A stretch of DNA of 64,000 bases, taken from Dehalococcoidia bacterium. Lineage in GTDB: Bacteria; Chloroflexota; Dehalococcoidia; Lucifugimonadales; UBA2962. A program made the translations under genes and the position numbers. Shown in pieces: positions 7,611-54,028 of the stretch (position 1 is the first letter of the stretch; every line of letters starts with the position of its first letter). The notes under the pieces are model-generated. The model ran no database searches. It saw only the letters and a program-made list of their open reading frames with translations, and had not been told where the DNA came from. The DNA is taken from contig DAOUKM010000003.1 of the NCBI GenBank assembly GCA_034421295.1, forward strand, positions 130,709 to 194,708, given 5' to 3'.

Positions 7611-8054
7611 ATGGAATACATAGGAGTAGACGGCTGTCGCTTTGGCTGGGTAAGCGTGGGACTCAGTCAGTGCGGAGTCTACGAAATTGAGAAGTTCACA
7701 GAATTTCGACAATTGCTGAAGCACTATCCACATGCAAGGCTCGTCCTAGTCGACATCCCCATTTGTCTGCCACAAGGACCAGGTGGACGTGATTGTGATC
7801 GAGAGGCCAGACGAAAGCTAGGGGCTCGTGGGCCAACCGTGTTTCCGACCCCGACCCGCCAGACAGTGCAGCAGGCGGCACGGTCCACCGGCGACTACAA
7901 GGCCTCCGCCGACCTCGAACAAGGCATAACCGGCAAACGAGTCAACCGGCCTGGCCGCCCGAACCGCTTTGCCGCTTCTCCATGGCCCGAGCGGTGGCCG
8001 TCAGATGCCCGGATGTCTCCACAGGGTAAGTGTCGGGCTCATCGAGTTTCCTGA
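7611..8054 (+). CDS. DUF429 (RNase H-like fold) family protein, apparently 3'-truncated
   Basis: MEYIGVDGCRFGWV...LVLVDIPICLP...RDCDREARRKLGARGPTVFPTPTR matches the DUF429 N-terminal signatures (GVDG-x-x-x-GW; D-I-P-I-G-L-P; C-D-x-x-AR-x-x-LG). Similarity stops near 7935, where the ORF runs antisense into the 3' end of pncB. The probable start is ATG 7611 rather than 7563. Confidence 0.5.
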   Translation: MEYIGVDGCRFGWVSVGLSQCGVYEIEKFTEFRQLLKHYPHARLVLVDIPICLPQGPGGRDCDREARRKLGARGPTVFPTPTRQTVQQAARSTGDYKASADLEQGITGKRVNRPGRPNRFAASPWPERWPSDARMSPQGKCRAHRVS

Positions 8055-30696: not shown

Positions 30697-31344
30697 ATGC
30701 TGAGATTCGCCGAAGAGATCGTACTGCTTTTGATCGACGACGAGGGCAGGTTTGCCAGCGTGCCCGATTGGTCCGTCAACCATGCTCTGGCCGGTGGCGT
30801 TCTGATGGATCTGGCGCTTGAGAACCGTATCGACACCGATCTGGAGAGTCTGATTCTGGTGGACCCTACGCCCGTCGGAGACAGTCTGCTCGACCGGACA
30901 TTGGCGGAGATTTCCGAAGGCGAAAAGCGCGACGCCCGATTCTGGGTGGAGCAAACGGCGGGACGGGCCGATGAGATCCGCGAGGAGGCACTGTCTCGCC
31001 TGATCTCTCAGGGAATCCTGGAGTGCAGGGACGACCGCTTCCTGTGGGTGTTTCGCTCCAAGCGCTACCCGGCGGTCGACCGCAAGGCAGAGAGGGATGT
31101 CAAGCTCCGGGTCATGGGGGTCCTGTTCAGCGATGAGATCCCTCACCCACGCGACGTGGTGATAATCTGCCTCGCCGACGCGTGCGGCATCTTCGGACGG
31201 CTACTGTCTAAGAGTGAGCTGGCGAAGGCCACTGCCAGGATCGAGCAGGTGCGAAAGCTGGATCTCATTGGGCAGGCCATGTCCCAGGCGATCGAGGATA
31301 TAGAGCTCTCGGTCGCCGCCTCAGTGCATCCGTACATGTATTGA
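30697..31344 (+). CDS. GPP34/GOLPH3-like family protein (stand-alone)
   Basis: MLRFAEEIVLLLIDDEG...RIDTD...EIPHPRDVVIICLADACGIF...KLDLIG is collinear with the N-terminal 225 aa of the two P450 fusions at 47.9-52.7 kb. The track start is GTG 30688. ATG 30697 is preferred because a TAGAGT -10-like box sits 7 nt upstream. Confidence 0.8.
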   Translation: MLRFAEEIVLLLIDDEGRFASVPDWSVNHALAGGVLMDLALENRIDTDLESLILVDPTPVGDSLLDRTLAEISEGEKRDARFWVEQTAGRADEIREEALSRLISQGILECRDDRFLWVFRSKRYPAVDRKAERDVKLRVMGVLFSDEIPHPRDVVIICLADACGIFGRLLSKSELAKATARIEQVRKLDLIGQAMSQAIEDIELSVAASVHPYMY

Positions 31345-31440: not shown

Positions 31441-33951
31441 CTACCTGAGGGACCCGACAGCCTCTTCAACCACAGCGGTGGCGTCCTGATAGTCGCTGCC
31501 GGGCGAAAAGTGCAGAGGCTTCCCGAACTGGACCTCGACGCTACCTCTCCTTAGCAGGGGGAATCGGCTGGGAAAACCCGGCCTGCGGATGTGCAGGCGC
31601 AGGGGCACTACCGGGATGCGTCCCTCCACCGCAACCAGGCCGGTGCCGGTCATGAATGGCTTCATGGGTCCCCCGAAGGTGAGTTCTCCCTCCGGGAATA
31701 TGAGGACCGACCATCCGTTGTCCATGATCCTGCCCATGTTCTCCAGGCTGGGGCGGACGGCGCCGTCCCTTGCCAGGGGAAAGCCGTTCCCCAGAAGGGG
31801 GTTCAATAGCCAGCGGACCGGGTTCCTCCACAGTCTTGCCGCGGCGGCTATCGCCATTCGCCGGCGCCACTTCAGCGGCACGGCCTTGGTGATAAGGAGA
31901 TGATCCATGCCCAGGTGGTGATTGGATGCCAGCAGCACGGGGCCAGTGAGCCCCTCCAGGTTCTCGCTGCCTACGACCCTGAGGCTGTAGGTGAGGTTGA
32001 GCAGTGGGAATACCAGAGCTCTCTGGAGCATGCCGCGGAGCATGCGGCACCACCACCGCATTCCCCAGTCCGGGAAGACGACCATTGGGGGGCTCTTGGA
32101 ACCCTCCTCAACGAGCATCGCCAGACCTTCGACGGTCGTCTCTGGCCCCAGCTGACCCTCGTCTATGTAAACGCCCAGTTCCGCTTCAATCGCCGAGAGA
32201 AGCTCCACCCTGCCCAGAGAGTCCAGGTCGAGGTCGTCTCCGAGCCTCAGGTCTTCGAGTATCTGCCCGGGGTCCATTCTGGCTACCTCGCCCAGGATCT
32301 GAGCAAGTCCCCGCGGGCCGCCTCCCCGCCCCGCGCCGGGCCCGGCGGTCACCTGGGCCGCTGGCTCAGAGCCCTGGAGGACAGCGTCGATAACCAACTG
32401 CTTTTTCACCTTCAGTGTGTGTGTTCGAGGAAAATCCTCGCCCCGCCACATGGTCCAGCCTCTGATCTTCTGGTGTTCGGCCAACTGGCCGTTGGTCCAG
32501 GAGACCACCTGCTGCGCTGCGTCCGCGTCACCCAGGATCAGCGCGGCGTGGACCTCGACGGAAGAGCCCCTGCCCACTCCAACCACGGTGGCGTCATTGA
32601 CCTGGGGGTGCCTGACCAGCACCGCTTCGACATCCTCGGGAAAGACGTTCTGGCCGCTTGGCAGAACGATCATGTCCTTCAGTCGCCCCTGAATATGCAG
32701 GAACCCCTCTTCATCCAGGTACCCCAGGTCGCCCGTCTTGTACCAGTCGCCTTCGAAGGCCGCAGCCGTCTGCTCGGAATCGCGCCAGTAGCCCGGCGTA
32801 ACGTTCTCCCCCCGGACCCAGATCTCGCCCGCGCCGCTGATCTCTACCTCCACGTTCGGCAGCGGGCGACCGGCCGATTCAAGCCGTCTTTCGCCGAGGG
32901 CATGGTTACTGATCACGGGAGAGGCCTCGGTGGCTCCGTAGCCCTGGAGGATCTTTACCCCGATGAGCTCCCACTTCCGTCCAGTGTCGAGGTCCAGTGC
33001 CGCCCCGCCCGACACTATGAAGTCAAGCTCACCTCCAAACTGCCTGTGCACCCGGCGGAACAGGTGCCGTCGCAGCCGGAAGGGCGTCCACGCGGCGATT
33101 GTCAGGAGCAGGTTCCAGAGCGCCCGTTTGCCCTGCCGCTCGACCTCGCGTTCTATGCCGTTCATAAGGAGCTCCAGACCCTGGGGAACGAGGAGCATTA
33201 TCGTGATCCGGCGCTCGCGCATAGTTCTCGCTAGCACCGTGGGCTGGCGGCTGGTCGGGTAGGTGATGCTGGCCCCAGATGCCATGGCCATGAACAGACC
33301 GCCCATCTGCTCGTACATGTGGCTCAGGGGCAGGATGGAAAGCAGTCGGCTGGAGGGCCCGCAGGAGATGTACCGGGAGATGCCCTCGATGTTCGCCTTG
33401 AGGTTCCGGTGGGTGAGCATGACGCCCTTCGGGTCCCCCGTCGTGCCGGACGTGAACATGATCTCGGCAAGGTCATGCGGACCTACGTTGACTTCCGTGG
33501 GACCGGGCAGGCCGGCTATCGCCGCTTCGAGATCCTCGAACGCGATCTCCGGAACGTCCATGTCAAGCTCGCCTTTTGGAGTAAAGCGCGAAGTGAAAGC
33601 CAGCCGGGGCTCGGTCTTCGATAGCACGCGGGATACGTAGTCGGGCTCGCTGCGGACATCGAGTGGAACGACGGCGACACCGGCCCTCAGGCAGCCGATG
33701 AAGATGATCACCCAGTGCGGAGAGTTGGGTCCCCAGAGAATGACCCGGTCCCCCTTGGCCAGGCCCCTGCGCTGGAGCAGGGTGGCGACCTGGCCGGACT
33801 GTGTCCAGACCTGCGAGTAGGTCCAGCGCATGTACCTGAACCCGGGCTTTATGAGTAGGGCATCGAGCGGGCCGAATCTTTCGGTCGCCGTGCGAATGAA
33901 GTCGATGACGGTTTCGCCCGCCGGGTGATCGGATGTTCCGCTAGGGGGCAT
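31441..33951 (-). CDS. tri-domain fatty acyl-AMP/CoA ligase - acyl carrier - lysophospholipid acyltransferase (PlsC-type) fusion
   Basis: 836 aa. The adenylation domain has MFTSGTTGDPKGV, GYGATE and TGDLG. The carrier domain has LGDDLDLDSLGRVEL (Ser attachment site). The acyltransferase has NHHLGMD (HX4D) and FPEGELT. Confidence 0.85.
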   Translation of the reverse strand: MPPSGTSDHPAGETVIDFIRTATERFGPLDALLIKPGFRYMRWTYSQVWTQSGQVATLLQRRGLAKGDRVILWGPNSPHWVIIFIGCLRAGVAVVPLDVRSEPDYVSRVLSKTEPRLAFTSRFTPKGELDMDVPEIAFEDLEAAIAGLPGPTEVNVGPHDLAEIMFTSGTTGDPKGVMLTHRNLKANIEGISRYISCGPSSRLLSILPLSHMYEQMGGLFMAMASGASITYPTSRQPTVLARTMRERRITIMLLVPQGLELLMNGIEREVERQGKRALWNLLLTIAAWTPFRLRRHLFRRVHRQFGGELDFIVSGGAALDLDTGRKWELIGVKILQGYGATEASPVISNHALGERRLESAGRPLPNVEVEISGAGEIWVRGENVTPGYWRDSEQTAAAFEGDWYKTGDLGYLDEEGFLHIQGRLKDMIVLPSGQNVFPEDVEAVLVRHPQVNDATVVGVGRGSSVEVHAALILGDADAAQQVVSWTNGQLAEHQKIRGWTMWRGEDFPRTHTLKVKKQLVIDAVLQGSEPAAQVTAGPGAGRGGGPRGLAQILGEVARMDPGQILEDLRLGDDLDLDSLGRVELLSAIEAELGVYIDEGQLGPETTVEGLAMLVEEGSKSPPMVVFPDWGMRWWCRMLRGMLQRALVFPLLNLTYSLRVVGSENLEGLTGPVLLASNHHLGMDHLLITKAVPLKWRRRMAIAAAARLWRNPVRWLLNPLLGNGFPLARDGAVRPSLENMGRIMDNGWSVLIFPEGELTFGGPMKPFMTGTGLVAVEGRIPVVPLRLHIRRPGFPSRFPLLRRGSVEVQFGKPLHFSPGSDYQDATAVVEEAVGSLR

Positions 33952-40903: not shown

Positions 40904-41401
40904 ATGGAGGAACAAGAGGGAACGGTCGAGGTGCTTCTTGTCGAGGACAACCCTGGTGATGCCCGACTTACCCAGGAAGCGCTAAAGGACTCCAAGTATG
41001 AGGTCAACGTCAGCGTCGCCGAGGACGGCGAGATCGCCCTGTCGCGACTTCGCAAGGAGGGCGAGTTCGCCGACACGCTCTCTCCCGAGCTGATTCTTCT
41101 CGACCTGCAGCTGCCCAAGCGATCCGGCCTTGAGGTCCTGGCCGAGATCAACAAGGACGAGGGACTGCGTCACATACCCGTCGTAGTGCTGACCGGGACC
41201 TCCGCCGAGGGCAGCATGCTCCAGTCGTATGGGATTTCGCCTTCGCGTTTCATGAGGAAGCCGGTCAACGTCGCACGCTTTGACGTGACGATGACGACCA
41301 TGCGGTCGTATTCGCAGAGGGAAGCCGACCAGTCCCCTGAGGATTCAGCTGCCGAATCGCCCGCCGCTCCCACAAGGCGCTGGTGGTGGCCATTCGGATA
41401 G
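40904..41401 (+). CDS. single-domain response regulator (Rcp1-like)
   Basis: VEVLLVEDNPGDARLT...LILLDLQLPKRSG...PVVVLTGS. The receiver domain is followed by an acidic/Pro tail. Confidence 0.9.
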   Translation: MEEQEGTVEVLLVEDNPGDARLTQEALKDSKYEVNVSVAEDGEIALSRLRKEGEFADTLSPELILLDLQLPKRSGLEVLAEINKDEGLRHIPVVVLTGTSAEGSMLQSYGISPSRFMRKPVNVARFDVTMTTMRSYSQREADQSPEDSAAESPAAPTRRWWWPFG

Positions 41402-41417
41402 GCATGGTCCACTAGCC

Positions 41418-43238
41418 ATGGCCCAAGCTCCAGGGCCGAACGAGAATCCGGGTTCTGACCGCCCGAGCCCCGGTCAGCCGAGTTCCCGAGTCGCATACGC
41501 CGAACTTGCCAAGATCGGCCAGATAGTCACGTCGACGCCTGACATCGGCGACGTCTATCAGCAGTTCGACGCCACGGTGGCCCGGCTCATCCCGTTCGAC
41601 AGGATAAGCATTTCCACTCTGGACCTCGAGACCAACGAAGTGATCAACTCCCACGTGGCCGGCGCGGGGCCTCAGGCGCTGGATGGGGCCGCCATCAGAC
41701 GTCTGGAAGATACGACCGCGCTCCTCGTAGCGAGATCTCTGAGCGGGCTGGTCGCATGCGGAGACGAATACGAAAGGCTGGCAGGTCAGTACAGCGTCGA
41801 GGCTCTGCACTACCAGGCCGGATTCAGGTCAAAGGTCTCGGTTCCCCTCCTGTACAGGGGAGAGGTCATAGGAGTTCTCACGCTGCGGTCGAGGTCTCCA
41901 GATGCATACAACGAGGACCATCTTCAGTCAGCCGCGGAGGTGGGCAACCAGATCTCGGGCGCTCTCTACAACTCGGCGATGGTCTCTCAGCTCGGCGAGA
42001 TGGTGAGAGAAAGGGACCTGCTGGCCCGCATCGGCAGAATCGTGACCTCTACCTCCGACATGGACGATGTCTACAGGCAGTTCGCGGCCGCGGTGGCCGA
42101 GAGGGTTGCGATCGACAGGATCAACGTCACCGTCCTTGGAGGTTCCAAGGACACTATCCGTGTTGCTTACCTGAGCGGAGAGGACATACCGGGGAGCTGG
42201 GGTTCGTGGCAGGACATGCCCATGAGGGGCACCACCGAGGAGCAGGCCCTGCTCGGCGGGGCCGGCATCTGGAACCTGACCGATGAGATCGTGGAGTCCG
42301 GCATCCTGCCCGGAGAGATGGAGAGCATGGAGGCCGGGTTCCGGTCCATCGTCACCGTTCCCCTTCTGTCCATGCACGAGACGGTGGCGTTCCTGACGGT
42401 GGCGTCCAAGGTTAAAAACGCATACTCGGAGGAGGACCTGCAGTTCCTGTGCCTCGTCGGAGACCAGGTTGCCGGGGCGGTTGCTACCAGCCTGCTGGTG
42501 AGCGAGCTGCACAGGACCCATGATGAGCTGAGGCGCTCTAATGCCGACCTCGAGCAGTTCGCCTACGTAGCCTCGCACGACCTGCAGGAGCCGCTGAGGA
42601 TGGTCTCCAGCTACGTGACGTTGCTTGAGCGCAGGTACCGTGGCCGCCTTGACGCCGATGCTGACGACTTCATCCATTTTGCCGTCGACGGAGCCGAGAG
42701 GATGAGGCAGCTCATCCAGGACCTGCTGGCCTTTTCCCGCGTCGGCACCCGGGGCGGCGAACTTGTTCCCACCGACAGTCGAGCCGCGTTGACGAGAGCG
42801 CTCGAGAATCTTCAGGTCCTGATCGATGAGACCGACGCCCGCATCATCTTCGATGAGATGCCCCAGGTAAACGCCGATCCGGGGCAGCTTGAGCTGGTCT
42901 TTCAGAACCTGATCGGAAATGCCATCAAGTACCGCGGAGAGGATCGCCCGAAGGTGACGGTGTCGGCGGTGGCCCAGGAAGGGGACTGGCTCTTCGGGGT
43001 AAGGGACAATGGAATCGGCTTTGAGCAGAAGTTTGCCGACAGGATATTCGGAGTGTTCCAGCGGCTTCAGACGAGGAGCGAGTACCCGGGGACGGGGATA
43101 GGCCTTGCGATCGTGAAAAAGATCGTCGAGAGGCACGGGGGAAGGATCTGGGCCGATTCGGAGCCTGGCGCCGGCTCCACGTTCTGGTTCACGATGCCCG
43201 CCTCGGCCAACGGTTACGGGGGACTGCAGATTGAGTGA
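41418..43238 (+). CDS. multi-GAF sensor histidine kinase (phytochrome-type transmitter)
   Basis: 606 aa with repeated GAF modules. The H-box is [16 protein letters not shown]. The HATPase boxes are [15 protein letters not shown] and GTGIGLAI. Confidence 0.9.
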
Positions 43239-43674
43239 TTCCCGGTTCGGTAGACCCATCCACATACTGATGGTAGAGGACAATCCGGGCGACGTCCGCC
43301 TTGCCAAGGAGGCGCTTCGCGATGCCAAGGTCCGCAACGACATGGTGGTGGCGCCCGACGGGGAGCGGGCGATGGAGATATTGACCGGTGCCGAAAGGCT
43401 GCCCGACCTGGTTCTGCTGGATCTCAATCTGCCCAAAAGGCACGGAAGGGAAGTCCTTGCCCAGATGAAGAGCGACGATGGCCTCAAGCGCATACCCGTG
43501 GTTGTCCTCACGAGTTCGCAGGCAGAGGAGGATGTGCTCGGCACCTACGACCTGCACGCCAACTGCTACATCACAAAGCCACTGGACCTTGACCAGTTCG
43601 TCAAGGTGGTTAATTCGATCGAGGATTTCTGGCTGACCATCGTCACCCTTCCGCCGACGTCCCCGGCCCGGTGA
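43231..43674 (+). CDS. single-domain response regulator (Rcp1-like)
   Basis: [16 protein letters not shown]...[13 protein letters not shown]...PVVVLTSS...ANCYITKP. 8-bp overlap with the kinase gene. Confidence 0.9.
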
Positions 43675-44308: not shown

Positions 44309-46792
44309 ATGAACCAGGTGCTCGACAGGCTGAGCTGGCTGGTAACGGCCCGCCCGTACATCACGATAGTAGTTCTCATCTTGGTCACCTTGGTCTTGGC
44401 CGCCGGGGCTTCGCTGAGGCTCCCGCCGACGGAGGGGGCGGACGTAGCCTTCCTCCCGCCAGGGCATCCCGTCGCCGATGCTACCCGCGAGGTCAGCGAG
44501 TTCTTCAGCGACTCAGGCGATGTCAGGGTCGCAACCCTCATCTTCCGAGGCGAGGCGCTGACGCCCAGCGGCCTGTCTCAAATGGACTACCTGATCGATG
44601 CCGTCGCTGGCGACCCTAGCGTGAGCGGGCTTCTGGCTCCTCCCAACCCCATTACCGCGCCCGCGCCCATTATCGCAGCCGCGCTCGAGGTGGACGGCTT
44701 CGAGTCCGTCACCCAGGCGCAGATCGACTCCGTCCGCAGCGTGCCGGAGATCCGGACGGCTCTCTCGGCGATGACAGGGACCGACACGGACGGCACGCCG
44801 GTCGCAATCGCCAACTTCCGCCTGACCAACACGGGCGACGAGAAGATCCGGGACGCCGAGCGGCGGATCGGCGAGCTTGCCGCCGCAGATGAAGGTCCGC
44901 TGCACGTGAGCAGCCTGTCGCCTGTGATCATCGAGGACGAGTACAAGCAGGCCACGGAGTTGGGAATGGCGCCGTTTATAGGGCTGGCCCTGCTGCTGAT
45001 CGTAGTGCTGATCCTTCTCTTCACACGCACCGTCTCCGACATGCTGTTGACGCTGACGGGGCTTATCTTGTCGATCGCCGGGGTTATCGGGGCTGAGGGC
45101 TGGCTTGGGCCGGATGGGCTGGGCCTGATAGGCCCTCCAAGCTCGCTCACGGCAATGGTGCCCGTCATCCTGATCAGCCTGACGGTGGACTATGCCATTC
45201 AGACGGTCTCCCACTACCGCGAGCAGCGTATCGAAGGCGAGCCGGTCGCGGCCGCCACGCGGATTGGACTGCGACACGTCACGATTCCGCTGACGCTGGC
45301 AGCCGTAACCACGATCGTCAGCCTGCTGGCTACCCTCTTCTCGCCGATCGGGGTGATCGGCGACTTCGGCATCGTCGCGGGGCTGGGCGTGGCCATTAGC
45401 CTGGTGGTGATGCTGGCGCTTATCCCCGCCGGCCGGACAATCATCGACCGGCGGCGCGAGGTGCGAGGCACCCTGAAGCCCGCCCGGCCGATCTCGAACG
45501 CACTGCCAGGCATCCCCAAGGCGGCTGAGCTGCTCGGCAAATGGGTTACGCGCAGGCCAGCGCCCCACCTCATCGCAGTGCTCCTGATTACGATAGGCCT
45601 AGGGTATGCCGCCACCGGGCTGGAGTCCGAATTCAGTATCAAGGACCTCCTGCCCCGGGGCGGGGGCGTCCTGGAGGACATGAACACTCTGGAAGCTGCC
45701 GTAGGCGGATCGACGGAGATAGCCAGCCTTCTGATCAAGTCCGAGGCAACTGAGAGCCGCACGCTATTGAATCTCCACGATCTCACCAACGCCTTCGACG
45801 ACGAGCAGAACCGCCCGCGGGGCGCCGCGGGGCCCATCCAGGGATCATACGAAAGGTTCGTGTACGACTGGACCAACGACTCCGGTGAGCCCGGCGACAA
45901 GTACGACCCGGAGTTGGCAGCGCTCTTCCGCGAGGCTTCGCCCGGAGTGGAGCTCAATCCGGCGCTGATGCAGGAGTTCGTCGACAGGCTCTTCGAGAAA
46001 GAGCCGGAGCTGGCGCATTTCATGGTCAACGACCCGGATGGCCCCGATACGATGCTCCTCCAGTTCCCGATCCTCCCGGGCGATCCAGGGGGAACGAGGA
46101 CGCTCAATGACGACATAGACGAGCTGTGGCTCGGCGACGACAGCGCCGTTGCGGCGACTTCCGGCAGCATCGTCGCCGTTGCGGTCACCGACCAGATCAC
46201 CGAGGGACAGACAGAGTCGATCACCACGACCATCGCCGTCGCCCTAGGCATCCTCGCCATCTTCTTCTGGTTGACGCTTCGTCAACCCGCTTTGGCAGTA
46301 ATCGCCGTGGGGCCGATCGTCCTCGTCCTCTTCAGCGTGCTGGGCACGATGGCGCTGCTGAGCATCCCCTACACCCTGATAACCTCGATCATTACGGCCC
46401 TGTCGATCGGTATTGGAGTCGACTACACAATCCACGTGATCCATCGCTACCGAGAGGAATTCAACCGCGTCCGCAACCCGGAGAAAGCGGCGGTCCGCAC
46501 CCTTGCGACCACCGGTTCCGCCCTGTTGGGATCGGCGCTGACCACGGCGTTCGGATTCGGAGTCCTGATCGCATCGCCGCTGCTTGCGTTCCAGCAGTTC
46601 GGCATCACAGCCACCATCACGATCATCTACTCCCTGATAGTCTCGGTCTTTGTGGTGCTGCCCGCGATGGTGGTCTGGGGCGCGTACCAGAACATGCGAA
46701 TGCGCTCGATGGTCGAGCGTATGTGGGAGGATCTGGACGTGGCCATCGAGGACATCGCCCAGCTTCACCAGCAGGGTCGGGGCTCGTCCTAG
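44309..46792 (+). CDS. RND-superfamily exporter of the MMPL/HpnN-like branch
   Basis: 827 aa with a 1+5 TM, large loop, 1+5 TM topology. Conserved TVDYAIQ and GVDYTIHVIHRYREE motifs are present. Its stop lies 12 nt before the methyltransferase start, with GAGAGGGA as the RBS. Confidence 0.9.
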   Translation: MNQVLDRLSWLVTARPYITIVVLILVTLVLAAGASLRLPPTEGADVAFLPPGHPVADATREVSEFFSDSGDVRVATLIFRGEALTPSGLSQMDYLIDAVAGDPSVSGLLAPPNPITAPAPIIAAALEVDGFESVTQAQIDSVRSVPEIRTALSAMTGTDTDGTPVAIANFRLTNTGDEKIRDAERRIGELAAADEGPLHVSSLSPVIIEDEYKQATELGMAPFIGLALLLIVVLILLFTRTVSDMLLTLTGLILSIAGVIGAEGWLGPDGLGLIGPPSSLTAMVPVILISLTVDYAIQTVSHYREQRIEGEPVAAATRIGLRHVTIPLTLAAVTTIVSLLATLFSPIGVIGDFGIVAGLGVAISLVVMLALIPAGRTIIDRRREVRGTLKPARPISNALPGIPKAAELLGKWVTRRPAPHLIAVLLITIGLGYAATGLESEFSIKDLLPRGGGVLEDMNTLEAAVGGSTEIASLLIKSEATESRTLLNLHDLTNAFDDEQNRPRGAAGPIQGSYERFVYDWTNDSGEPGDKYDPELAALFREASPGVELNPALMQEFVDRLFEKEPELAHFMVNDPDGPDTMLLQFPILPGDPGGTRTLNDDIDELWLGDDSAVAATSGSIVAVAVTDQITEGQTESITTTIAVALGILAIFFWLTLRQPALAVIAVGPIVLVLFSVLGTMALLSIPYTLITSIITALSIGIGVDYTIHVIHRYREEFNRVRNPEKAAVRTLATTGSALLGSALTTAFGFGVLIASPLLAFQQFGITATITIIYSLIVSVFVVLPAMVVWGAYQNMRMRSMVERMWEDLDVAIEDIAQLHQQGRGSS

Positions 46793-46804
46793 GAGAGGGA
46801 ACCT

Positions 46805-47842
46805 ATGCAGCTTCGTGATCTATCCAACGGGCTGAAGGCCGCATACCGTGGGGCGGACGTCCGCAGTCGCGTGAAGCGCTTCGATGGGTGGATGGACAGG
46901 GCGCACGTGGATGGAGCCGGCACGGCGGACTACGACCACACCCAGACCGTCAAGGAATACTACGACCTATGCAGCGAGTTCATGGTGTTCGGTTGGGGTG
47001 AATCACTCCACTTCGCGCCGCTGTCGCCAAGGGAGAGTCTGGAGGAATCCAAGATCCGGCACCAGCGGCTGATGATCGCCAAGCTGGAGATGCGCGAGGG
47101 CATGACGGTGATCGACGTCGGCTGCGGGATCGGCGGTCCGATGCGCCGGGTCGCCCGCGAAGCCGGTGTCAGCGTGGTCGGGATCAACACCAATGAAATC
47201 CAGCTGGAGAGGGCAAGATCATTAGGCGCTCAGGCGGGGCTCGACCATTCGGTCGACTACTTGGCGTGCAGCTTCATGGACATGGGCGCCATCGCGGACG
47301 ACACGTTCGACCGGGGGTACGCGATCGAATCTACCTGTCATGCGCCGGACAAGGCGGGAGCGTTCGCCGAGATCTACCGCGTGTTGAAACCCGGAGCACT
47401 GTTCTGGGGTCAGGAAATGTGCATGACGGACAAGTTCGACCCCGGCGACAATCGGCACCTGGCCATCAAGAAGGACCTGATGCACGGTATCGCGCTCAAG
47501 GATATCGCGACCACCGGCGAGGTGAACCGCGACCTGGAAGCGGCGGGATTCCAGGTCATCGAGGCGAAGGACCGGGCGGTCGATGAGAACGGTTCCATCA
47601 CACCGTGGTACCAGCCCATGGAGGCCCGGGGCAATACGCTGGGCAACGCCCTGCGCAGGACTCCTCTGGGCCGCAAGGCGATCATCGGGACATCCAGACT
47701 GGCCGAAGCGGTGGGGATTTTCCCGAAAGGATCGGCGGACGTTGTCGGGTTGATGGATCGCACGGCCAAAGCCTACCTCGCGGGCGGCCGGGCAGGTGTT
47801 TTCACGCCCCTGTACTGCTTCCTGGCTCGAAAGCCCCTTTAG
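46805..47842 (+). CDS. sterol 24-C-methyltransferase (SMT/ERG6) family SAM-dependent methyltransferase
   Basis: 345 aa, collinear with ERG6-type SMTs. YYDLCSEFMVFGWGESLHF matches SMT region I (YEYGWGxSFHF). VIDVGCGIGGPMRRVA is the SAM motif. YAIESTCHAP matches the AIEATCHAP motif. The C-terminal Sterol_MT_C-like end GVFTPLYCFLARKP matches FTPMxxFxARKP. Confidence 0.85.
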   Translation: MQLRDLSNGLKAAYRGADVRSRVKRFDGWMDRAHVDGAGTADYDHTQTVKEYYDLCSEFMVFGWGESLHFAPLSPRESLEESKIRHQRLMIAKLEMREGMTVIDVGCGIGGPMRRVAREAGVSVVGINTNEIQLERARSLGAQAGLDHSVDYLACSFMDMGAIADDTFDRGYAIESTCHAPDKAGAFAEIYRVLKPGALFWGQEMCMTDKFDPGDNRHLAIKKDLMHGIALKDIATTGEVNRDLEAAGFQVIEAKDRAVDENGSITPWYQPMEARGNTLGNALRRTPLGRKAIIGTSRLAEAVGIFPKGSADVVGLMDRTAKAYLAGGRAGVFTPLYCFLARKPL

Positions 47843-47885
47843 ACGCTTTCCTCCCCAGTATCTCGAGCCCGATCTCTATGGTGGG

Positions 47886-49913
47886 CTAGACTTCTATCTC
47901 GTGCCGCTGCTCTGCGATGCGGAACTTCAGCTTCTTGCTTGGTTTCATCGACGGTATGGGGTTGAACCGGAACTTGAAGTTCGCAGGTGAGACCTCGAGC
48001 GTGAAGTAATGGGCAATCATCAGCACGGTGACGGCAAGGTGCAATTCCACCCACCGAGAGCCGAGACACCTATGCGTGCCCAGCCCGTACGGTGCGTAGC
48101 CGGGGCTGAGATGTTCGTTGCGCGGAGGCAGGTAGCGGTCGATGTCGAACTTGAACGGGTCTGGGAAGACGTCGCTCATGTAATGTGAGGCTGTCGTGGC
48201 GATGTAGAGGCGTGACCCGACCGGCAGCTCATAGTTCTCGACCACACACGAATTCATCACGGTCCGAAGTGACATGGGAATGATCGGGTACATCCGCAGG
48301 CATTCCATAAGGAAGCGGTGCGTGACGTCAATGGCCTCCCGGGTGAAGTCCCCGGCTTTTGGGTCGCCGTTGTCAAAGAGGGCATCTGCTTCACGCTGGA
48401 TCTGGCGGTAGAGCGCAGGCTGCGACGCCATAGCGTACACCGCTAAGCTCAGTGCATCGCCAAGGTACATGCTGGCCAGCAGTGGCGCCGTAAGTGTGAA
48501 CCGCATATTCGATTCCGGGAAAAACTGCGGATCGCTCCCGTGCAGGCTGAGCAGGTCATCCACAAGGTCCCGAGCGGCTCCAGCCCGCTGGGCCGATGTA
48601 TGTTTATCCTGGATCCGACGCAGCACCGTGTCGATGGCTTTCCCGCGACGCCTCATGTTCGGGGTATTCAGCATGAATTTGGGCAAGACCTTCAGTACGT
48701 GAACCGCAAGCGCCCTTTCCTTGTACATGATCAGATCGTCGACGATATCTTGCGAGTTAAGGCTTACAACGAGCGGCGAGAGCTGTGCATTAATCATTCG
48801 CCGGCTCATGCTAGTAGCCGGTAAGATGCCTCCAACCTTCCAATCTGCCATTTGCTTCCGGCCTTGATGAAACAGTTGGTCTATCTGGCCCGCAAGCCTC
48901 TCGCGGGAATAACCCGGCTGCATGGCCTTGCGAAGGCGGAAATGGTCGGCGCCATCGAGGGAAGGTATCAGCCCTGAGGCGCCAAAGGCCTCCTCCATGC
49001 TGGTGAAGTAATCTCTGGCTCTCAGGTGCATGCGTCCGCGCTTGTTCACCCAGTTGTTTGTCTCAGGCCCGGCCAGGAAGACCATGGGCTCTGCGAACGG
49101 TCGGCGGATCTCGAACACCGGGCCATACTCGTGCGCAAGGTCCGCGAATAACGCCGGGATGTTGCCGGTGCGGACGTGCGGATTCAATAGCAGCTTGCGT
49201 AGTGATATTGAGGGAATGTCCTTGGTGAGTGCGGAACGTCGAAGCAGCGGTCCGGCTAGGTTCTGGGAGACCGCATCAGCTATGGACCGGGCGATAAGAT
49301 CCAACTTACAGATGGCCTGGATGCGCTCATCTATCACTTCATCGAGTTGAAACATGAAGCGAAAGACGTCGCAGGTATCGATCAGGGCGATGATGATGAT
49401 GTCTCTCGGATCGGGAATCTCATTATTGAAGATGACTTTGCTGATGCGAGTCCTGACGAAGTGCGCCGCATTGCCGTCCGACGAAGCGCTGGCCACTTCC
49501 GCGCGTAAGGCGGCGCGGGAAAGCGTCCAGAATTCGCCGTCATGGTGTTCCAGGATCTTCAGTTCAACCAAATGATCCAGAGCCATATCAATTATGGACT
49601 CTGCACGTGGGGCGAGCCGTTCGATCCAGTACTGGGCGTTCCGCCGTGCCGATTCCCCCGCGATCTCGTTGAGTATGGGGTCCAGCGTAGGGTCACCTGT
49701 TTCTGTCCTGTCCAAAAGGAACAGGGAATCCATGTCAGTGTCGATGCGTGACATGAGAGAAAGTTCCGCGAGCGCGGCGCCGGCAACGGTGCAGTTCAGA
49801 TCCCAGCCTGGTACTTGGTGGAAGTAACCGCTCTCCTCATTGAGGAGCATCAGTATGAGTTCTTCCGGCAGGCTTAACTGTTTGGCCGCTTCACCGTCCG
49901 TGGTGAGAGTCAT
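47886..49913 (-). CDS. GPP34(GOLPH3-like) - cytochrome P450 fusion protein, paralog A
   Basis: 675 aa. Residues 1 to about 225 are collinear with the stand-alone GPP34 protein (EELILMLLNEE, RIDTD, EIPDPRDIIIIALIDTCDVF, KLDLIA). The C-terminal roughly 450 aa is a P450: ExxR is ECLRMYP, the PERF-like motif is FDIDRYL and the Cys-ligand loop is YGLGTHRCLGSRW. Confidence 0.9.
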   Translation of the reverse strand: MTLTTDGEAAKQLSLPEELILMLLNEESGYFHQVPGWDLNCTVAGAALAELSLMSRIDTDMDSLFLLDRTETGDPTLDPILNEIAGESARRNAQYWIERLAPRAESIIDMALDHLVELKILEHHDGEFWTLSRAALRAEVASASSDGNAAHFVRTRISKVIFNNEIPDPRDIIIIALIDTCDVFRFMFQLDEVIDERIQAICKLDLIARSIADAVSQNLAGPLLRRSALTKDIPSISLRKLLLNPHVRTGNIPALFADLAHEYGPVFEIRRPFAEPMVFLAGPETNNWVNKRGRMHLRARDYFTSMEEAFGASGLIPSLDGADHFRLRKAMQPGYSRERLAGQIDQLFHQGRKQMADWKVGGILPATSMSRRMINAQLSPLVVSLNSQDIVDDLIMYKERALAVHVLKVLPKFMLNTPNMRRRGKAIDTVLRRIQDKHTSAQRAGAARDLVDDLLSLHGSDPQFFPESNMRFTLTAPLLASMYLGDALSLAVYAMASQPALYRQIQREADALFDNGDPKAGDFTREAIDVTHRFLMECLRMYPIIPMSLRTVMNSCVVENYELPVGSRLYIATTASHYMSDVFPDPFKFDIDRYLPPRNEHLSPGYAPYGLGTHRCLGSRWVELHLAVTVLMIAHYFTLEVSPANFKFRFNPIPSMKPSKKLKFRIAEQRHEIEV

Positions 49914-50085
49914 CCGTCTTGCTCCCGTGGACCATGCCGATGTTCTAGGCTGCCCGGTACCGTCCGTATGAGGGACAGTTTATCCTACCGACGAGGTAGC
50001 GATGCAGCCTTTTGGCGGCTCTATAATGCGCAACGCGTCGGGGCTGTACAGGTCGTTCCTGGGCCCTGCACGGGCTACCCTGGCC
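49914..50085 (-). promoter_or_regulatory. conserved 5' region of P450 paralog A
   Basis: About 130 bp directly upstream of the start is alignable almost base-for-base with 52732 to about 52865. It includes GGGAG about 8 nt before ATG and TAGAAC (plus strand gttcta, 49942-49947). Confidence 0.5.
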
Positions 50086-50590
50086 GAGGTGATCGAGACC
50101 CGCACATTTCTGAATCTTGAGGATCTCACAACCGCCTTTGAGGACGAGTCGCCTTGTCCGCCGCAGGATGCAGGACCGATCCAGGCTCCGTGCCACCCGG
50201 CACTGAGCGACCGGGATGAAGACACTGTGGAGTCAGGAGACAGCTACGCCCCCGAGCTTGCGTCTCTCTACTGGGAAGCTTCCGTTGGCCTGGCCCCCGA
50301 CGAGGTTGCATCAAGGGGTGTGTAAAAACGATCAGGCGGCGACCCTCTCTATCTGTTCCTCGATGGGGATTCCCCCGACCGAGAGCTGATGCGACAGGCC
50401 GTCGAAAGGCTTGTCGACAATAACCGCACCTGACGTGCCTTCCATTGAACGATCCGGAAGGCATCGATACGCTGCCACCTCAGTTCCCGGTCTACCTGGG
50501 CGATCCCACGGGAACTGGGATGATCCAAGAGGAATTGGAATCGCTCTGGTCGGGCGACGACAGCGCCATCAAGGCGACTCTGGTGAGGAG
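50086..50590 (+). pseudogene. decayed internal fragment of an RND exporter gene paralogous to 44309-46792
   Basis: EVIETRTFLNLEDLTTAFEDES..AGPIQ...YAPELASLYWEAS aligns to ESRTLLNLHDLTNAFDDEQ..AGPIQ...YDPELAALFREAS of the intact gene. LNDPEGIDTLPPQFPVYLGDPTGT...LESLWSGDDSAIKAT aligns to VNDPDGPDTMLLQFPILPGDPGGT...IDELWLGDDSAVAAT. In-frame stops lie at 50323-50325 and 50431-50433, and the frame changes after the second. The TM domains and both gene ends are missing. Confidence 0.7.
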
Positions 50591-50703
50591 GCCGGCTTGG
50601 CAGCTCGAGTAAACGCCTGCCGCGTTTGGCCCCTCGTCGCCGCTCGTTACCGGCAATACGCTAGCCGGCTGGCTGCGCGGAGAGACGAATGCCCGGCGGA
50701 CGG

Positions 50704-52731
50704 TCAGGCGCGTATCTCATGCCTCTGCTCGGCCACCCTAAGCTTCACCTTCTTGCCCAGAGACAGTGACGGAAGTGGACTGATCTTTGGCCAATCACCC
50801 ACGGGGGAAACCTCAAGCGTGAAGTAGTGAGCGATCATGAGTGCATTGACGGCCAGCTGCAGTTCCATCCAGCGGGAGCCGAGACAGGTATGCGTGCCCA
50901 GGCCGAAAGGGGCGTACCCGGGACTGAGGTGCTCATTGCGTGGAGGCGTATAGCGGTCGATGTCGAATGTGAAGGGGTCGGGGAAGACGCCCTTCATAAA
51001 GTGCGTGGCCGTTGTGGCGATGAATATTCGTGATCCAATCGGGAGTTCATAATCCTCGACAACGCACGTATTCATCACGTTCCGAATAGACATCGGGACG
51101 ATGGGGTACATGCGCAGGGTCTCCATGAGGAAGCGGTGAGTAACGTCTATTGCTGACGGCGTGAAATCCCCGCCCTTCGGATCGCCGTCGCCGAACAGGG
51201 CATCAGCTTCGCTCTGGATCTTGCTGTAGAGCTCAGGTTGGGACGCCATTGCATAGAGCGCGAAGCTGAGTGCATCGCCGAGGTAGACGCTGGCGATCAG
51301 CGCTGCTGCGAGCTGGAAGCGTAGAGTCGTCTCCGGGACGAACTGCGGATCGCTTGCATGCAGGCTGAGCCAGTCGTCCGCAAGGTCCCGGGGAGAACCG
51401 GCCCGCTGGGCGGGCGTGTGGACGCCTTGGACCCGCTTCAGCAACGTGTCCACTGCCTTCGCCCTGTGTCTCATGTCAGGAGTGTTGAGCATGAATTTGG
51501 GCAGGACCTTAATGATGTGAGTCAGGAGCGCCCGTTCTTTGTACTTGGCCAGATCGTCAAAGACATCCTGAGATTCCACGCTGATAAAGAGCGGCGAGAG
51601 TTGCGCGTTGATCAGCAGGCGGCTCATGCCCGTTGCGGGCATGGAGTCGCCGACCTTCCAATCCGCCATGTGCTTTCGGGCATGGCGGTAGAGAATATCC
51701 AGCTGTTCTGCGAGCCTGCCGCGGGAATACGCCGGGGACATGGCCTTGCGAAGCCGGAAATGCTCTGCCCCGTCCATAGAAGGCATCACTCCGGACGCGC
51801 CGTAGACCATCTCGAAGTCGGAGAAATAGTCTTTAGCCCTCAGGTACATGCGTCCGCTTCGATGCACCCAGCGGTTCGTCTCTGTCCCGGCAAGGAAGAT
51901 CATGGGTTTCTGAAGCGGCGGGTGGATCTTGAATACCGGGCCATACTCTTCTGCCAGGTCCGCAAAGAGCGCGGCAATGTTGCCGCTGCGGACGTGCGGA
52001 TTCAGCAGCAGCCTGCGCAGTGAGACTGTGGGTATATCCTTGGTGAGCGCGGAACGCCTAAGCAACGGACCGGCCATGTTCTCGGAGACGGCGTCGGCTA
52101 TGGATCGGGCGATAAGGTCCATCCTGCAGATGGCCTGGATGCGCTCTTCTATCTCGTCATCGAGCTGAAACATAAAACGAAAGACATCGCAGGTATCGAT
52201 CAGGGCGATGATGATGACATCTCTCGGATCGGGAATCTCATTGTTGAATATGACCTTGCTGATGCGAGTCCTGACGAAGTGCGCCGCATTACCCTCTGAC
52301 GACGCGCTGGACATCTCCGCCTGCAGGGCGGCACGGGAAAGCGTCCAGAATTCACCTTCATGGTGCTCCAGGATCTTCAGTTCAACCAGACGGTCCAGAG
52401 CCAGGTCGATTACGGACTCTGCCCGGGGGGCGAGCCGTTCGATCCAGTACTGGGCGTTCCGCTTTGCCGGCTCCCCCGCGATCTCCTTGAGTATGGGGTC
52501 CAGCGCGGGGTCACCCGTCTCGGTCCTGTCCACAAGGAAAAGGGAATCTACGTCAGTGTCGATGCGCGAGATGAGGGAAAGTTCCGCGAGCACAGCGCCG
52601 GCAACGGTGCAGTTCAGGTCCCAGCCGGGTACCTGGTGGAAGTAGCCGCTTTCCTCATTGAGGAGCATCAAGATGAGCTCTTCCGGCAAACTTAGCCGTT
52701 TGGTCTCTACACCGTCTGTAGTGAGAGTCAT
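50704..52731 (-). CDS. GPP34(GOLPH3-like) - cytochrome P450 fusion protein, paralog B
   Basis: Same architecture and length (675 aa) as paralog A when started at MTLTTDGVETKRLSLPEEL (ATG 52731). The track ORF start 52821 adds 30 non-homologous residues. The Cys loop is FGLGTHTCLGSRW and ExxR is ETLRMYP. Confidence 0.9.
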   Translation of the reverse strand: MTLTTDGVETKRLSLPEELILMLLNEESGYFHQVPGWDLNCTVAGAVLAELSLISRIDTDVDSLFLVDRTETGDPALDPILKEIAGEPAKRNAQYWIERLAPRAESVIDLALDRLVELKILEHHEGEFWTLSRAALQAEMSSASSEGNAAHFVRTRISKVIFNNEIPDPRDVIIIALIDTCDVFRFMFQLDDEIEERIQAICRMDLIARSIADAVSENMAGPLLRRSALTKDIPTVSLRRLLLNPHVRSGNIAALFADLAEEYGPVFKIHPPLQKPMIFLAGTETNRWVHRSGRMYLRAKDYFSDFEMVYGASGVMPSMDGAEHFRLRKAMSPAYSRGRLAEQLDILYRHARKHMADWKVGDSMPATGMSRLLINAQLSPLFISVESQDVFDDLAKYKERALLTHIIKVLPKFMLNTPDMRHRAKAVDTLLKRVQGVHTPAQRAGSPRDLADDWLSLHASDPQFVPETTLRFQLAAALIASVYLGDALSFALYAMASQPELYSKIQSEADALFGDGDPKGGDFTPSAIDVTHRFLMETLRMYPIVPMSIRNVMNTCVVEDYELPIGSRIFIATTATHFMKGVFPDPFTFDIDRYTPPRNEHLSPGYAPFGLGTHTCLGSRWMELQLAVNALMIAHYFTLEVSPVGDWPKISPLPSLSLGKKVKLRVAEQRHEIRA

Positions 52732-52935
52732 CCGTCTTGCTCCCCGTGGACCATGCCGATATTCTAGGCCGCTCAGTACCGTCGGTAGGATGGACATTTT
52801 ATCCCACCGGTGAGGCAGCACTGCTGCATCCTGGTGGCCCTATGATGCGGGATGCGTCCGGGAGGCGCGCGTCCGGGGCTGGACGGATCGCTTCTGGGTC
52901 CCGCGGGTCGGGCGCGATTTACCCTGGCCGGATCC
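52732..52935 (-). promoter_or_regulatory. conserved 5' region of P450 paralog B (shared divergent region with the Rieske gene)
   Basis: Homologous to 49914-50085. TAGAAT (plus strand attcta, 52761-52766) lies about 30 nt upstream of the ATG and a GGGGAG RBS is present. Confidence 0.5.
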
Positions 52936-53086
52936 AGGCATACAGATCGAAAACTCATGAGAGGAGCGTTGAGCGATAGCAACTCGATTTAAGGCGCCCG
53001 CGGACGCCCCGCTGGCTTCCCCGTTTCCAGAGGGCTGGTATTTCGTCGCAAGCCGTCGCACCATCTTAAAGGCGAAGCTCATCCAG

Positions 53087-54028
53087 ATGACCTGGATGAG
53101 CGAGAGCATCGTAGTCTGGTGCGACGAGAGCGGGCGGGTCTGCGTATCCGAGGCCTATTGCCCCCACCTCGGCGCCGATCTGGGGCCTGAGGCCGGGGGG
53201 AGAGTATGCGATGGTCGGCTCGTATGTCCCTTCCATGGCTATGAGTTCGATGCAACGGGCCAGTGCGTCGCCACCCCTTTCTCCCCTCCGCCGAAATTTG
53301 CGAGGCTGCGGGTCTTCGAGACGCGAGAGATAGCCGGGATGATCTTCGCGTGGTGGGGAATCCGGGGACGGGCGCCCCAGTGGCACCTGCCCTCAGAATC
53401 GCCTGACCAGACTGGTTGGAGCGATATTGATGTCAGGACCATCCGTTTTCCCGGGCATCCTCAGGAGACCACGGAGAACTCGGTGGACCTGGCGCACCTT
53501 CGGTACGTGCACGGTTACGACGGCGTAAACCGCGTCGGCCCCGTGTCCGTGGACGGTCCCCTTCTGGAAAGCAATTTCGACTTCACGAGAACCCGGACGA
53601 TCGCCGGTATAGCTAGCTTCACGTTCGATGTTTCAGCCAGGACCCGTATCTATGGACTGGGATACTCGTACGTGGAGATCCGCGAGCATTCCATCGGCAT
53701 GGACTTACGCCTGTGGATACTGGCGACTCCTGTCGACGGGAATCTAATAGACCTGTCTCTGGCAGGGCAGGTGCGGGAGATCAGTAACCCCAGGCGATGG
53801 ATATTGGGTCTCGGATTTCTCCCGGTGAGGCTGCGTGCGCCCATAATGAACAAGTTCATGGCCTCCCAGCAAGAAAAGGACGTGCGACAGGACGTGGTCA
53901 TCTGGAGCCGCAAGCAGTATAGGTCCCGCCCCCGCCTGTGCCGCTCCGATGGCGAGCTCATGCCATTTCGAGCCTACTGTGCCCAGTTCTATCCCGACCC
54001 CGGCGATTCTGACATCTCGGCTGTCTAG
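53087..54028 (+). CDS. Rieske [2Fe-2S] non-heme-iron oxygenase, alpha-subunit-like (true start probably upstream)
   Basis: The Rieske motif is CPHLGADL-x16-CPFHGYEF. The mononuclear iron motif is ENSVDLAHLRYVH (E-x3-D-x2-H-x4-H). The frame is open back to 52973 and encodes FPEGWYFVASRRTILKAK, the canonical first strands of the Rieske domain, but no ATG, GTG or TTG is present there. Confidence 0.85.
   Translation: MTWMSESIVVWCDESGRVCVSEAYCPHLGADLGPEAGGRVCDGRLVCPFHGYEFDATGQCVATPFSPPPKFARLRVFETREIAGMIFAWWGIRGRAPQWHLPSESPDQTGWSDIDVRTIRFPGHPQETTENSVDLAHLRYVHGYDGVNRVGPVSVDGPLLESNFDFTRTRTIAGIASFTFDVSARTRIYGLGYSYVEIREHSIGMDLRLWILATPVDGNLIDLSLAGQVREISNPRRWILGLGFLPVRLRAPIMNKFMASQQEKDVRQDVVIWSRKQYRSRPRLCRSDGELMPFRAYCAQFYPDPGDSDISAV

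Follow-up and report, generated by a model that had tools for sequence, protein, structure and literature searches.

A putative mobile sterol-tailoring and lipid-transport gene cassette of sponge symbionts in a Dehalococcoidia genome

Bacterial sterol C-24 methyltransferases (SMTs) and oxidosqualene cyclase (OSC) clusters are already known from sponge symbionts (PMC10070321, PMC9531527). The described de novo clusters (sdmB–sdmA–ERG24–CYP51–SMO::OSC plus an SMT, in which SMO is squalene epoxidase; Brown et al. 2023, PMC10070321; 'CSGs', PMC9531527) come from the same habitat as the genes studied here, and ERG24–CYP51–LSS clusters were reported in 115 of 537 metagenome-assembled genomes (MAGs) from Ircinia, including Dehalococcoidia (Kelly et al. 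2022, PMC9531527). A separate literature describes GPP34_L, a fusion of a GPP34 domain with a cytochrome P450 (P450). GPP34_L comprises 656 proteins that are monophyletic and found only in sponge symbionts, of many phyla; it is transcribed in Aplysina aerophoba and present in 80% of sponge Dehalococcoidia (PMC11706023). Side-chain-alkylated sterols (24-isopropyl, 26-methyl, and C31) serve as fossil evidence for the first animals. It is not established whether the methyltransferases for unusual sterols reside in the sponge, its bacteria, or both (2025 PNAS, PMC12541326). Here we describe positions 44,309 to 54,028 of a 64,000-nucleotide stretch (the window; positions 130,709 to 194,708 of contig DAOUKM010000003.1, assembly GCA_034421295.1) of a Dehalococcoidia bacterium. 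This region encodes a resistance-nodulation-division (RND) transporter, an SMT-family methyltransferase, two GPP34-P450 fusions, and a Rieske oxygenase. It is probably one copy of a mobile sterol-tailoring and lipid-transport cassette of sponge symbionts, and in the best-supported version of this reading the cassette would act downstream of, or parallel to, canonical sterol synthesis. The reading draws on domain content, conserved linkage, adjacency to sterol operons, a methyltransferase clade signature, and cassette replacement, all of which are observed.

A preliminary description of the region, made from the sequence alone, had named five elements. All of them were present, the RND relic by tblastn and the others by Pfam.

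44309–46792, plus strand: RND transporter (HAE3/MMPL type), 827 amino acids (aa); Pfam MMPL 4e-39
46805–47842, plus strand: SMT-family methyltransferase, 345 aa; Pfam Sterol_MT_C 1.2e-14 at residues 283–344
47886–49913, minus strand: GPP34-P450 fusion A, 675 aa; Pfam GPP34 3e-28 (residues 15–216) and p450 2e-32; GPP34 domain at about 49224–49913, P450 domain at about 47886–49223
50002–50292 and 50424–50579, plus strand: RND relic, a pseudogene fragment in two pieces and two frames
50704–52731, minus strand: GPP34-P450 fusion B, 675 aa; Pfam GPP34 9e-30 and p450 9e-38; P450 domain at 50704–52041
52976–54028, plus strand: KshA-type Rieske oxygenase, 350 aa if the start is the ATA at 52976; Pfam KshA_C 4.9e-24 and Rieske 1.5e-14

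The two P450 genes had been called convergent, but both fusions lie on the minus strand in tandem; fusion A converges with the methyltransferase gene, and fusion B and the Rieske gene are divergent, as previously described. Fusion B, earlier read as a 705-aa frame from a GTG, has 675 aa from the ATG at 52731 by gene call, and its N-terminus then agrees with that of paralog A. The claim that the RND and methyltransferase genes are translationally linked was roughly right: the RND stop codon TAG overlaps a Shine-Dalgarno sequence (GGAGAGG) located 6 nt before the methyltransferase ATG. The long open reading frames of the 64 kb and a cyclase motif scan revealed no cyclase or squalene epoxidase in the window, in agreement with the same description. 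No OSC, squalene-hopene cyclase (SHC), or squalene epoxidase gene, and nothing else related to sterols, was found in the ca. 9.6 kb downstream of the window.

The window belongs to a metagenome scaffold of 280,588 bp (ENA ERZ23495174, NGUY21-1_SAMN17524325 scaffold_121), and its bearer is most likely a Dehalococcoidia/SAR202 symbiont. To relate the locus to other genomes, we used one-genome-per-species GTDB contigs and took the best 80 of 515 matching stretches (SMT 76–85% identical), all of which were from Dehalococcoidia/SAR202/Chloroflexota MAGs. Within 10 kb of the SMT gene, tblastn detected RND in 67, P450 in 67, GPP34 in 66, Rieske in 57, and an amine oxidase in 43 of the 80 loci. The cassette occurred in several gene orders with differing flanks, and three unrelated flanking contexts carried the same set, namely an amine-oxidase flavoprotein (ca. 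452 aa), a Rieske/KshA_C protein (ca. 350 aa), an MMPL RND transporter with helices like a sterol-sensing domain (SSD), an SMT, and a GPP34-P450 fusion. Sponge metagenome contigs showed the same linkage, including divergent versions with 40–47% identical fusions and other RND lineages. All 67 metagenome loci with an identifiable source came from A. aerophoba, Petrosia ficiformis, or Sarcotragus foetidus. In an unsupervised clustering of the neighboring open reading frames of 147 loci, the five cassette families were the top clusters, followed by a major facilitator superfamily (MFS) transporter (23/147) and an LprG/LppX-like lipoprotein (14/147); examples of the last two are at L002 15940–18145, L127 4818–6299, and L113 3975–4778. 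Chance juxtaposition was rejected because the linkage recurs in most of the 80 species genomes and in sponge contigs with varied flanks and orders. The gene set is therefore conserved elsewhere, and the possibility raised in the preliminary description that the genes are syntenic in no other genome falls away. These results support the view that the cassette genes form a conserved functional unit. The amine-oxidase flavoprotein, which among solved structures comes closest to LkcE of lankacidin biosynthesis (3e-24), is a further cassette enzyme that had been missed; the window has no copy of it, and MFS and LppX-like genes were not found there either. As far as we searched, the five-gene unit, its dominance in Dehalococcoidia, and the linked SMT clade signature are undescribed, and we found no literature linking GPP34 and sterol in sponge symbionts.

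The nature of the lipid is suggested by two independent Nitrospirota-type assemblies, L020/L021 and L155/L157, in which cassette orthologs adjoin a complete sterol operon. A DCTAE/DxDDTA motif scan of 154 loci and the window detected an OSC only in L020 and L021, both from A. aerophoba metagenomes. The gene order in L020 is an sdmB-like 3β-hydroxysteroid dehydrogenase, an sdmA-like Rieske (VanA_C), ERG24, CYP51, squalene epoxidase::OSC, and a classical SMT, followed by a Rieske fragment, a window-type SMT (73% identical), and a GPP34-P450 fusion (70%). L155/L157, on a circular 2.26-Mb contig, holds one continuous island of GPP34-P450, window-type SMT, KshA-type Rieske, outer-membrane protein, amine oxidase, classical SMT, sdmB, sdmA, ERG24, CYP51, SMO::OSC, MMPL/SSD RND, and MFS genes. 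The RND of this island belongs to a different lineage. The other cassette proteins of the island match those of Dehalococcoidia at 72% identity for both the SMT and the fusion, 58% for the Rieske, and 76% for the amine oxidase. Moreover, a classical SMT adjoins the cassette in three Dehalococcoidia loci (L125, L137, and L144) and in a metagenome contig that is apparently from a diderm (L032). Because cassette orthologs adjoin the complete operon in two assemblies, the lipid is very probably a sterol. The sterol- or triterpenoid-like substrate proposed in the preliminary description thus gains from the position of cassette orthologs beside a full de novo operon, but the enzymes themselves are not canonical SMT, CYP51, or SdmA.

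The de novo clusters (PMC10070321, PMC9531527) very probably concern the same lipid class as the cassette and are contiguous with its genes in the Nitrospirota-type symbionts; they encode cyclase, epoxidase, CYP51, ERG24, and SdmAB, whereas the window cassette lacks these and has a transporter. The A. aerophoba sterol cluster of Brown et al. (PMC10070321) contains a clade SMT as 'SMT 2 of 2'. De novo clusters appear much rarer in Dehalococcoidia (115/537 MAGs with CSGs) than the cassette (GPP34_L in 80% of sponge Dehalococcoidia). If the Kelly and GPP34_L data sets are comparable, many cassette carriers would lack a cyclase and would need exogenous sterols.

In L020, squalene epoxidase and OSC form one protein (4360–8022, ca. 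1130 aa). The same SMO::OSC fusion occurs in most of the best 120 of 1595 OSC matches (E ≤ 1e-30), whose carriers are apparent sponge symbionts of several phyla (Nitrospira, Acidimicrobiia, Alphaproteobacteria, and Rhodospirillales). Brown et al. entered one gene for both ERG1 and ERG7.

The cassette might instead tailor and export a non-sterol isoprenoid or another lipid, with squalene-type triterpenes, carotenoid-like polyenes, hopanoids, and polyketide lipids as examples. In Botryococcus, squalene is methylated by enzymes of the SMT family, and enzymes with the amine-oxidase fold are known to desaturate polyenes; the cassette amine oxidase is closest to LkcE, the nearest solved relatives of the methyltransferase are non-sterol enzymes, and the nearest NCBIfam P450 models, at low scores, are terpene oxygenases. 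In addition, a cyclase was not found near the cassette in Dehalococcoidia, and the one tested clade member is apparently inactive on two standard sterols (see below). On the other hand, the cassette is contiguous with a full sterol operon in two assemblies, canonical SMTs adjoin it elsewhere, and its steroid-type affinities (Sterol_MT_C, KshA_C, CYP51 as nearest P450 structures with a CYP51-like fold, and an SSD-like RND) fit steroid-shaped substrates. We therefore regard a non-sterol lipid as rather unlikely.

We next compared the methyltransferase with characterized SMTs. It has a class-I methyltransferase domain (Methyltransf_11, 3e-17) followed by Sterol_MT_C (PF08498; 54.6 bits against a cut-off of 21.7). 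Aligned to yeast Erg6, to which it is 33% identical (33–37% for its clade), it retains Region II (125-DxGxGxxGP-133), H90, E195, G217, and the C-terminal residues. The alignment reproduced the published motif numbering and one published identity value, which served to validate the Erg6 sequence. The preliminary description had credited the enzyme with all ERG6/SMT signatures, but S78, M81, L89, I249, and M341 deviate from functional SMTs (T78, Y/F81, F89, and L341). Region I reads GWGESLHF versus 84-GWGxxFHF-91, residue 83 is F, and residue 249 is I compared with G in propylating SMTs and D in Erg6. The window protein thus departs from the 25-residue set common to SMTs working on desmosterol or 24-methylenecholesterol (Brown and Welander 2025). 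T78 and 84-GWGxxFHF-91 are kept in every SMT methylating either sterol, residues 81 and 249 flank the docked sterol side chain in a model, and propylation requires G249 (Brown and Welander, bioRxiv 2025).

These deviations define a clade. An HMMER search of 1.84 billion cluster representatives gave 269 SMT-family representatives at E ≤ 1e-30. Of the best 150, 115 had a length of at least 300 aa; among these, M81/L89 was nearly confined to sequences at least 50% identical to the window protein, and the remaining SMTs, at most 43% identical, were nearly all Y81/F89 and mostly had N or D at 249. M81 and L89 occurred in 242 of 242 distinct clade members and I249 in 98%, with S, N, or G at residue 78, and the S-adenosylmethionine-binding and catalytic residues were kept in at least 99% of the 242. 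The clade shares its fold, domains, Regions II–IV, H90, and E195 with ERG6/SMT1/SMT2 and the functional bacterial SMTs, but differs from classical SMTs (F89, T78) by the near-invariant M81/L89/I249, S/N/G78, and the identity gap (at least 50% within and at most 43% outside). The best PDB relatives by sequence are non-sterol methyltransferases, with no ERG6-type C-24 enzyme among the matches.

One clade member appears to have been assayed already. The clade SMT of L020 (73% identical to the window enzyme) is 35.159% identical to Erg6, and 'A. aerophoba JGIcombinedJ30088_10000835 2 of 2' (gene JGIcombinedJ30088_100008359) was reported at 35.16% (Brown et al.). The gene order of the JGIcombinedJ30088 contig (genes 16 down to 9) also agrees with L020; because both the identity value and the gene order agree, we equate the two. 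Since this enzyme carries L89 and S78, it is not among the functional ones and is probably inactive on desmosterol and 24-methylenecholesterol. This inactivity is deduced from the published statement on conserved residues. The canonical sterol-C24-methyltransferase of the preliminary description thus gives way to a discrete clade with a changed side-chain pocket. Because the clade is under strong purifying selection and retains its catalytic residues, the simplest reading is that it would be catalytically active but use another acceptor. The clade is large and apparently restricted to sponge symbionts, and it combines a remodelled side-chain pocket with dedicated oxygenase partners.

A more specific proposal, to which we give a small chance, is that the clade is the missing 'second-stage' side-chain methyltransferase of the sponge holobiont, acting on Δ25 or other olefins that classical SMTs produce, with C-26 or C-27 as examples of the alkylated position. 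The products would be aplysterol-, strongylosterol-, or xestosterol-type skeletons or C31 sterols, and preparing or completing the side chain would fall to the GPP34-P450, the Rieske, and the flavoprotein. It fits that the clade enzyme adjoins a propylating classical SMT whose products bear a Δ25 bond, that the assay substrates so far are desmosterol and 24-methylenecholesterol only, and that the hosts include Aplysina (aplysterol) and Petrosia (petrosterol). If true, the precursors of the 'sponge' biomarkers of 26-methylstigmastane type would be of bacterial origin, and GPP34_L would act in sterol metabolism and not as a phagocytosis effector.

Both window fusions are GPP34_L members, with PF05719 at the N-terminus and PF00067 at the C-terminus of one open reading frame. 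The same arrangement was found in all 120 listed of 2132 relatives. The architecture is identical to that of the published proteins (ca. 675 aa, with relatives in several sponge-symbiont phyla), but the GPP34_L paper reads them as effectors without mention of sterol or methyltransferase and does not report linkage to SMT, Rieske, amine oxidase, RND, or sterol operons (PMC11706023). Fusions A and B share 76% aa identity (88% in the GPP34 domain and 70% in the P450 domain) and 79% nt identity. Their heme motifs (YGLGTHRCLG in A and FGLGTHTCLG in B) fit F/YGxGxHxCxG, and the heme ligand C616 and the EXXR residues E537 and R540 were invariant across 60 homologs. The I-helix (ca. residues 480–489) reads A-S-x-Y-L-G-D-A-x-S, in which G485 and D486 were invariant. 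The usual oxygen-activating threonine was missing in all 60 aligned homologs, which hints at substrate-assisted or otherwise atypical chemistry. Although the nearest P450 structures are CYP51s and the fold is CYP51-like (Foldseek; Methylococcus capsulatus CYP51), the identity to M. capsulatus CYP51 is only 19–20%, and that to the L020 CYP51 is 32% over only 110 residues. By P450 nomenclature, membership of CYP51 takes more than ca. 40% identity, and CYP51s carry an I-helix His-Thr-Ser signature. The fusions have LGDALS in place of this signature, and the P450 is not a CYP51.

The published proposal for GPP34_L is that it binds host phosphatidylinositol 4-phosphate (PI4P), blocks phagosome maturation, and thereby serves phagocytosis evasion (PMC11706023). 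Applied here, the GPP34-P450 proteins would be secreted effectors whose neighbors are functionally unrelated or loosely related. The restriction of GPP34_L to sponge symbionts of many phyla, its expression in situ, and PI4P binding by eukaryotic GPP34/GOLPH3 (PMC11706023) agree with this, as does a stand-alone GPP34 gene in the window. Against it, the N-terminus (MTLTTDGEAAKQLSLPEE...) has no hydrophobic signal-like stretch, and the GPP34 domain, a full-length Pfam match, has no phmmer match to solved GOLPH3/Vps74 chains. The invariant heme Cys and P450 core residues imply a working monooxygenase dependent on cytoplasmic redox partners. Furthermore, a methyltransferase, a Rieske, and a lipid pump accompany the gene in most genomes, and in others it lies with an OSC operon; PMC11706023 did not consider this linkage. 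An AlphaFold2 model of the fusion was mediocre (pLDDT 64.5) and too weak to judge a PI4P pocket. We consider the effector reading quite improbable, though it is not strictly exclusive of the sterol one, and the genomic context argues for GPP34_L as a putative membrane-tethered lipid monooxygenase. The cassette thus joins two literatures, on bacterial SMTs and on GPP34-P450 'eukaryote-like' symbiosis proteins, and offers a biochemical alternative to the effector model.

The stand-alone GPP34 gene (30688–31344, plus strand; 218 aa) is 39% identical to the fusion GPP34 domain. The adjoining gene on the minus strand (31441–33951) encodes 836 aa and combines AMP-ligase, carrier-protein, and acyltransferase domains, a sign that GPP34 may also occur in a further lipid-related context.

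In the Rieske oxygenase, the [2Fe-2S] ligands (CPH...CPFH) are intact, KshA_C scores 86 bits against a cut-off of 23.3, and the E-x3-D-x2-H-x4-H iron site described before is present as ENSVDLAHLRYVH. KshA was matched in the PDB (1.5e-21), and the phmmer similarity spans only the first ca. 140 residues. The protein shares the [2Fe-2S] motif and the D/E-x3-D-x2-H-x4-H-type iron motif with KshA, Neverland, DAF-36, and SdmA, and it is 68% identical over its full length to a 350-aa homolog in L002. It is not SdmA: model NF052579 scored 39 bits against a cut-off of 600, SdmA is of the VanA_C type and the window protein of the KshA type, and identity was 24% between the window Rieske and the L020 sdmA homolog and 20–21% between the L002 Rieske and the sdmA homologs of L020, L155, and L157.

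The start of this gene is unusual. The frame is open from 52973, the N-terminus of the family (FPEGWYFV) is encoded 5′ of the first ATG (53087), and an ATA at 52976 aligns with the ATG start of 48 homologs. Sequencing error was rejected as its source since the ATA is shared with L158 (5′ part of the Rieske gene at 9659–9790, minus strand), in which the 37 upstream codons show three synonymous changes and one non-synonymous change. The change is thus real and shared. Given the shared ATA and the conservation of the codons that follow it, initiation probably still takes place upstream of the ATG, from a non-canonical codon that is likely to be weak. Gene calls for the Rieske in four contigs are of 313 aa.

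With a KshA-like Rieske, a P450, and a lipid transporter in bacteria that inhabit sterol-rich tissue, the general scheme resembles the KshA/CYP125/Mce4 systems of actinobacteria, and the cassette might by analogy serve uptake and catabolism or detoxification of host steroids. The window Rieske shares its KshA_C catalytic domain with KshA, the 3-ketosteroid 9α-hydroxylase, but has no KshB-type reductase or catabolic genes nearby. KshB, KstD, Hsa, and side-chain β-oxidation genes were not found in the window or among the recurrent neighbors. Moreover, SAM-dependent C-methylation belongs to anabolism or tailoring, and the cassette is co-located with sterol biosynthesis genes. With its pathway genes not found in these places, steroid catabolism was rejected as very unlikely.

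The RND transporter had been placed in an HpnN-like/BstA branch. Pfam detected Sterol-sensing (1e-9, 38.9 bits against a cut-off of 22.3) and Patched (2e-8, 34.5 bits), both above cut-off, and the C-terminal membrane bundle resembles a sterol-sensing domain. The best NCBIfam model, HAE3, gave 200 bits against a cut-off of 352. The protein is not an HpnN or BstA ortholog (HpnN models 75 vs 1100 and 100 vs 752 bits; BstA 29 vs 1400 bits), and the MmpL3 equivalog model gave 30 bits against 1400 (NCBIfam). The best PDB matches were MmpL5 (5e-14) and HpnN (2e-10). HpnN (hopanoids), BstA (bacterial sterols), and MmpL (mycobacterial lipids) have in common with the cassette RND the RND/MMPL architecture, SSD-like helices, and genetic linkage to lipid-modifying enzymes. 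Unlike BstA, the cassette RND has no BstB/BstC partners in view. LprG-Rv1410 is a mycobacterial lipid-transport pair, and the MFS and LprG/LppX-like genes that recur near the cassette resemble it.

From these affinities and the gene linkage, we infer the substrate, reactions, transport direction, and GPP34 role as follows. Sterols would reach the cytoplasmic membrane, coming in some symbionts from de novo synthesis via the OSC operon and, in carriers without a known cyclase, probably from host or neighboring cells. Tethered to the membrane through GPP34, the P450 would oxidize or desaturate the sterol together with the KshA-type Rieske, and in most genomes the amine-oxidase-type flavoprotein would take part. 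The M81/L89/I249 methyltransferase would methylate a side-chain olefin other than the Δ24 of desmosterol or the Δ24(28) of 24-methylenecholesterol, probably working after the classical SMT or after the oxygenases. Finally, the SSD-like HAE3/MMPL pump, often joined by the MFS transporter and the LprG/LppX-like lipoprotein, would move the lipid out of, or between, membranes.

Several points weigh against the interpretation of the region as a sterol-tailoring cassette. If the tested enzyme is inactive, as is probable, its clade may act on no sterol at all. None of the 80 Dehalococcoidia loci showed an OSC, SHC, or squalene epoxidase up to 10 kb from the SMT gene, and none was found in the window. 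Among the best 120 of 1595 OSC matches obtained with the L020 OSC as query, none lay on a Dehalococcoidia chromosome with a known copy of the cassette; OSC and the GPP34-P450 fusion occurred together on two contigs (763,155 and 2,258,192 bp), both apparently Nitrospirota-type. No protein of the region reaches the curated NCBIfam cut-off of a characterized sterol enzyme or transporter. Part of the synteny is inherited and not independently kept, as many of the genomes are related. The window copy itself may be partly degraded, having no amine oxidase and a Rieske gene without a canonical start.

The history of this copy was examined by comparison with L158, a 363-kb contig whose flanks are 91% identical to the window at the nt level and which has a single cassette RND, SMT, fusion, and Rieske gene. 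Fusion B and the Rieske are 94% and 96% identical to their L158 counterparts in aa sequence. In contrast, aa identity to the L158 proteins falls to 72% for the window RND, 79% for the SMT, and 77% for fusion A. The relic matched the window RND by tblastn (50002–50292, 42% to residues 447–547, E 8e-16; 50424–50579, 48% to residues 566–617, E 3e-12), and its segments 50082–50288 and 50381–50578 were 80–82% identical by blastn to the middle of the intact L158 RND gene. These results confirm that it is the remnant of a second RND gene. Fusion B and the Rieske are thus the resident orthologs, and the RND, SMT, and fusion A form a xenologous cassette. Because the flanks match L158 at 91% nt while these three proteins match at only 72–79% aa, we conclude that a divergent RND–SMT–fusion cassette was inserted, after which the resident RND and SMT were largely deleted, and this accounts for the RND relic and the two P450 fusions. 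Recent tandem duplication of the P450 was rejected, as A and B share only 79% nt identity and the single L158 copy has its ortholog in B, not in A. The unit thus moves and is replaced cassette-wise between symbiont lineages and phyla.

On the same scaffold, ca. 6–8 kb past the right end of the window, L156 16990–19313 encodes a large serine recombinase with Resolvase, Recombinase, and Zn_ribbon_recom domains. Elsewhere in the window, a second and much more typical MMPL transporter (731 aa, MMPL 6e-91, without an SSD match) is apparently co-transcribed with an MpaB/Lcp-type oxygenase (390 aa) at 16330–19698 on the minus strand, and the two may form a further pair for lipid modification and export. 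Just upstream of the cassette, 40904–43674 (plus strand) encodes a response regulator, a GAF histidine kinase, and a second response regulator. This trio is kept in L158 but not in other cassette loci, and a regulatory link to the cassette is possible in this lineage only.

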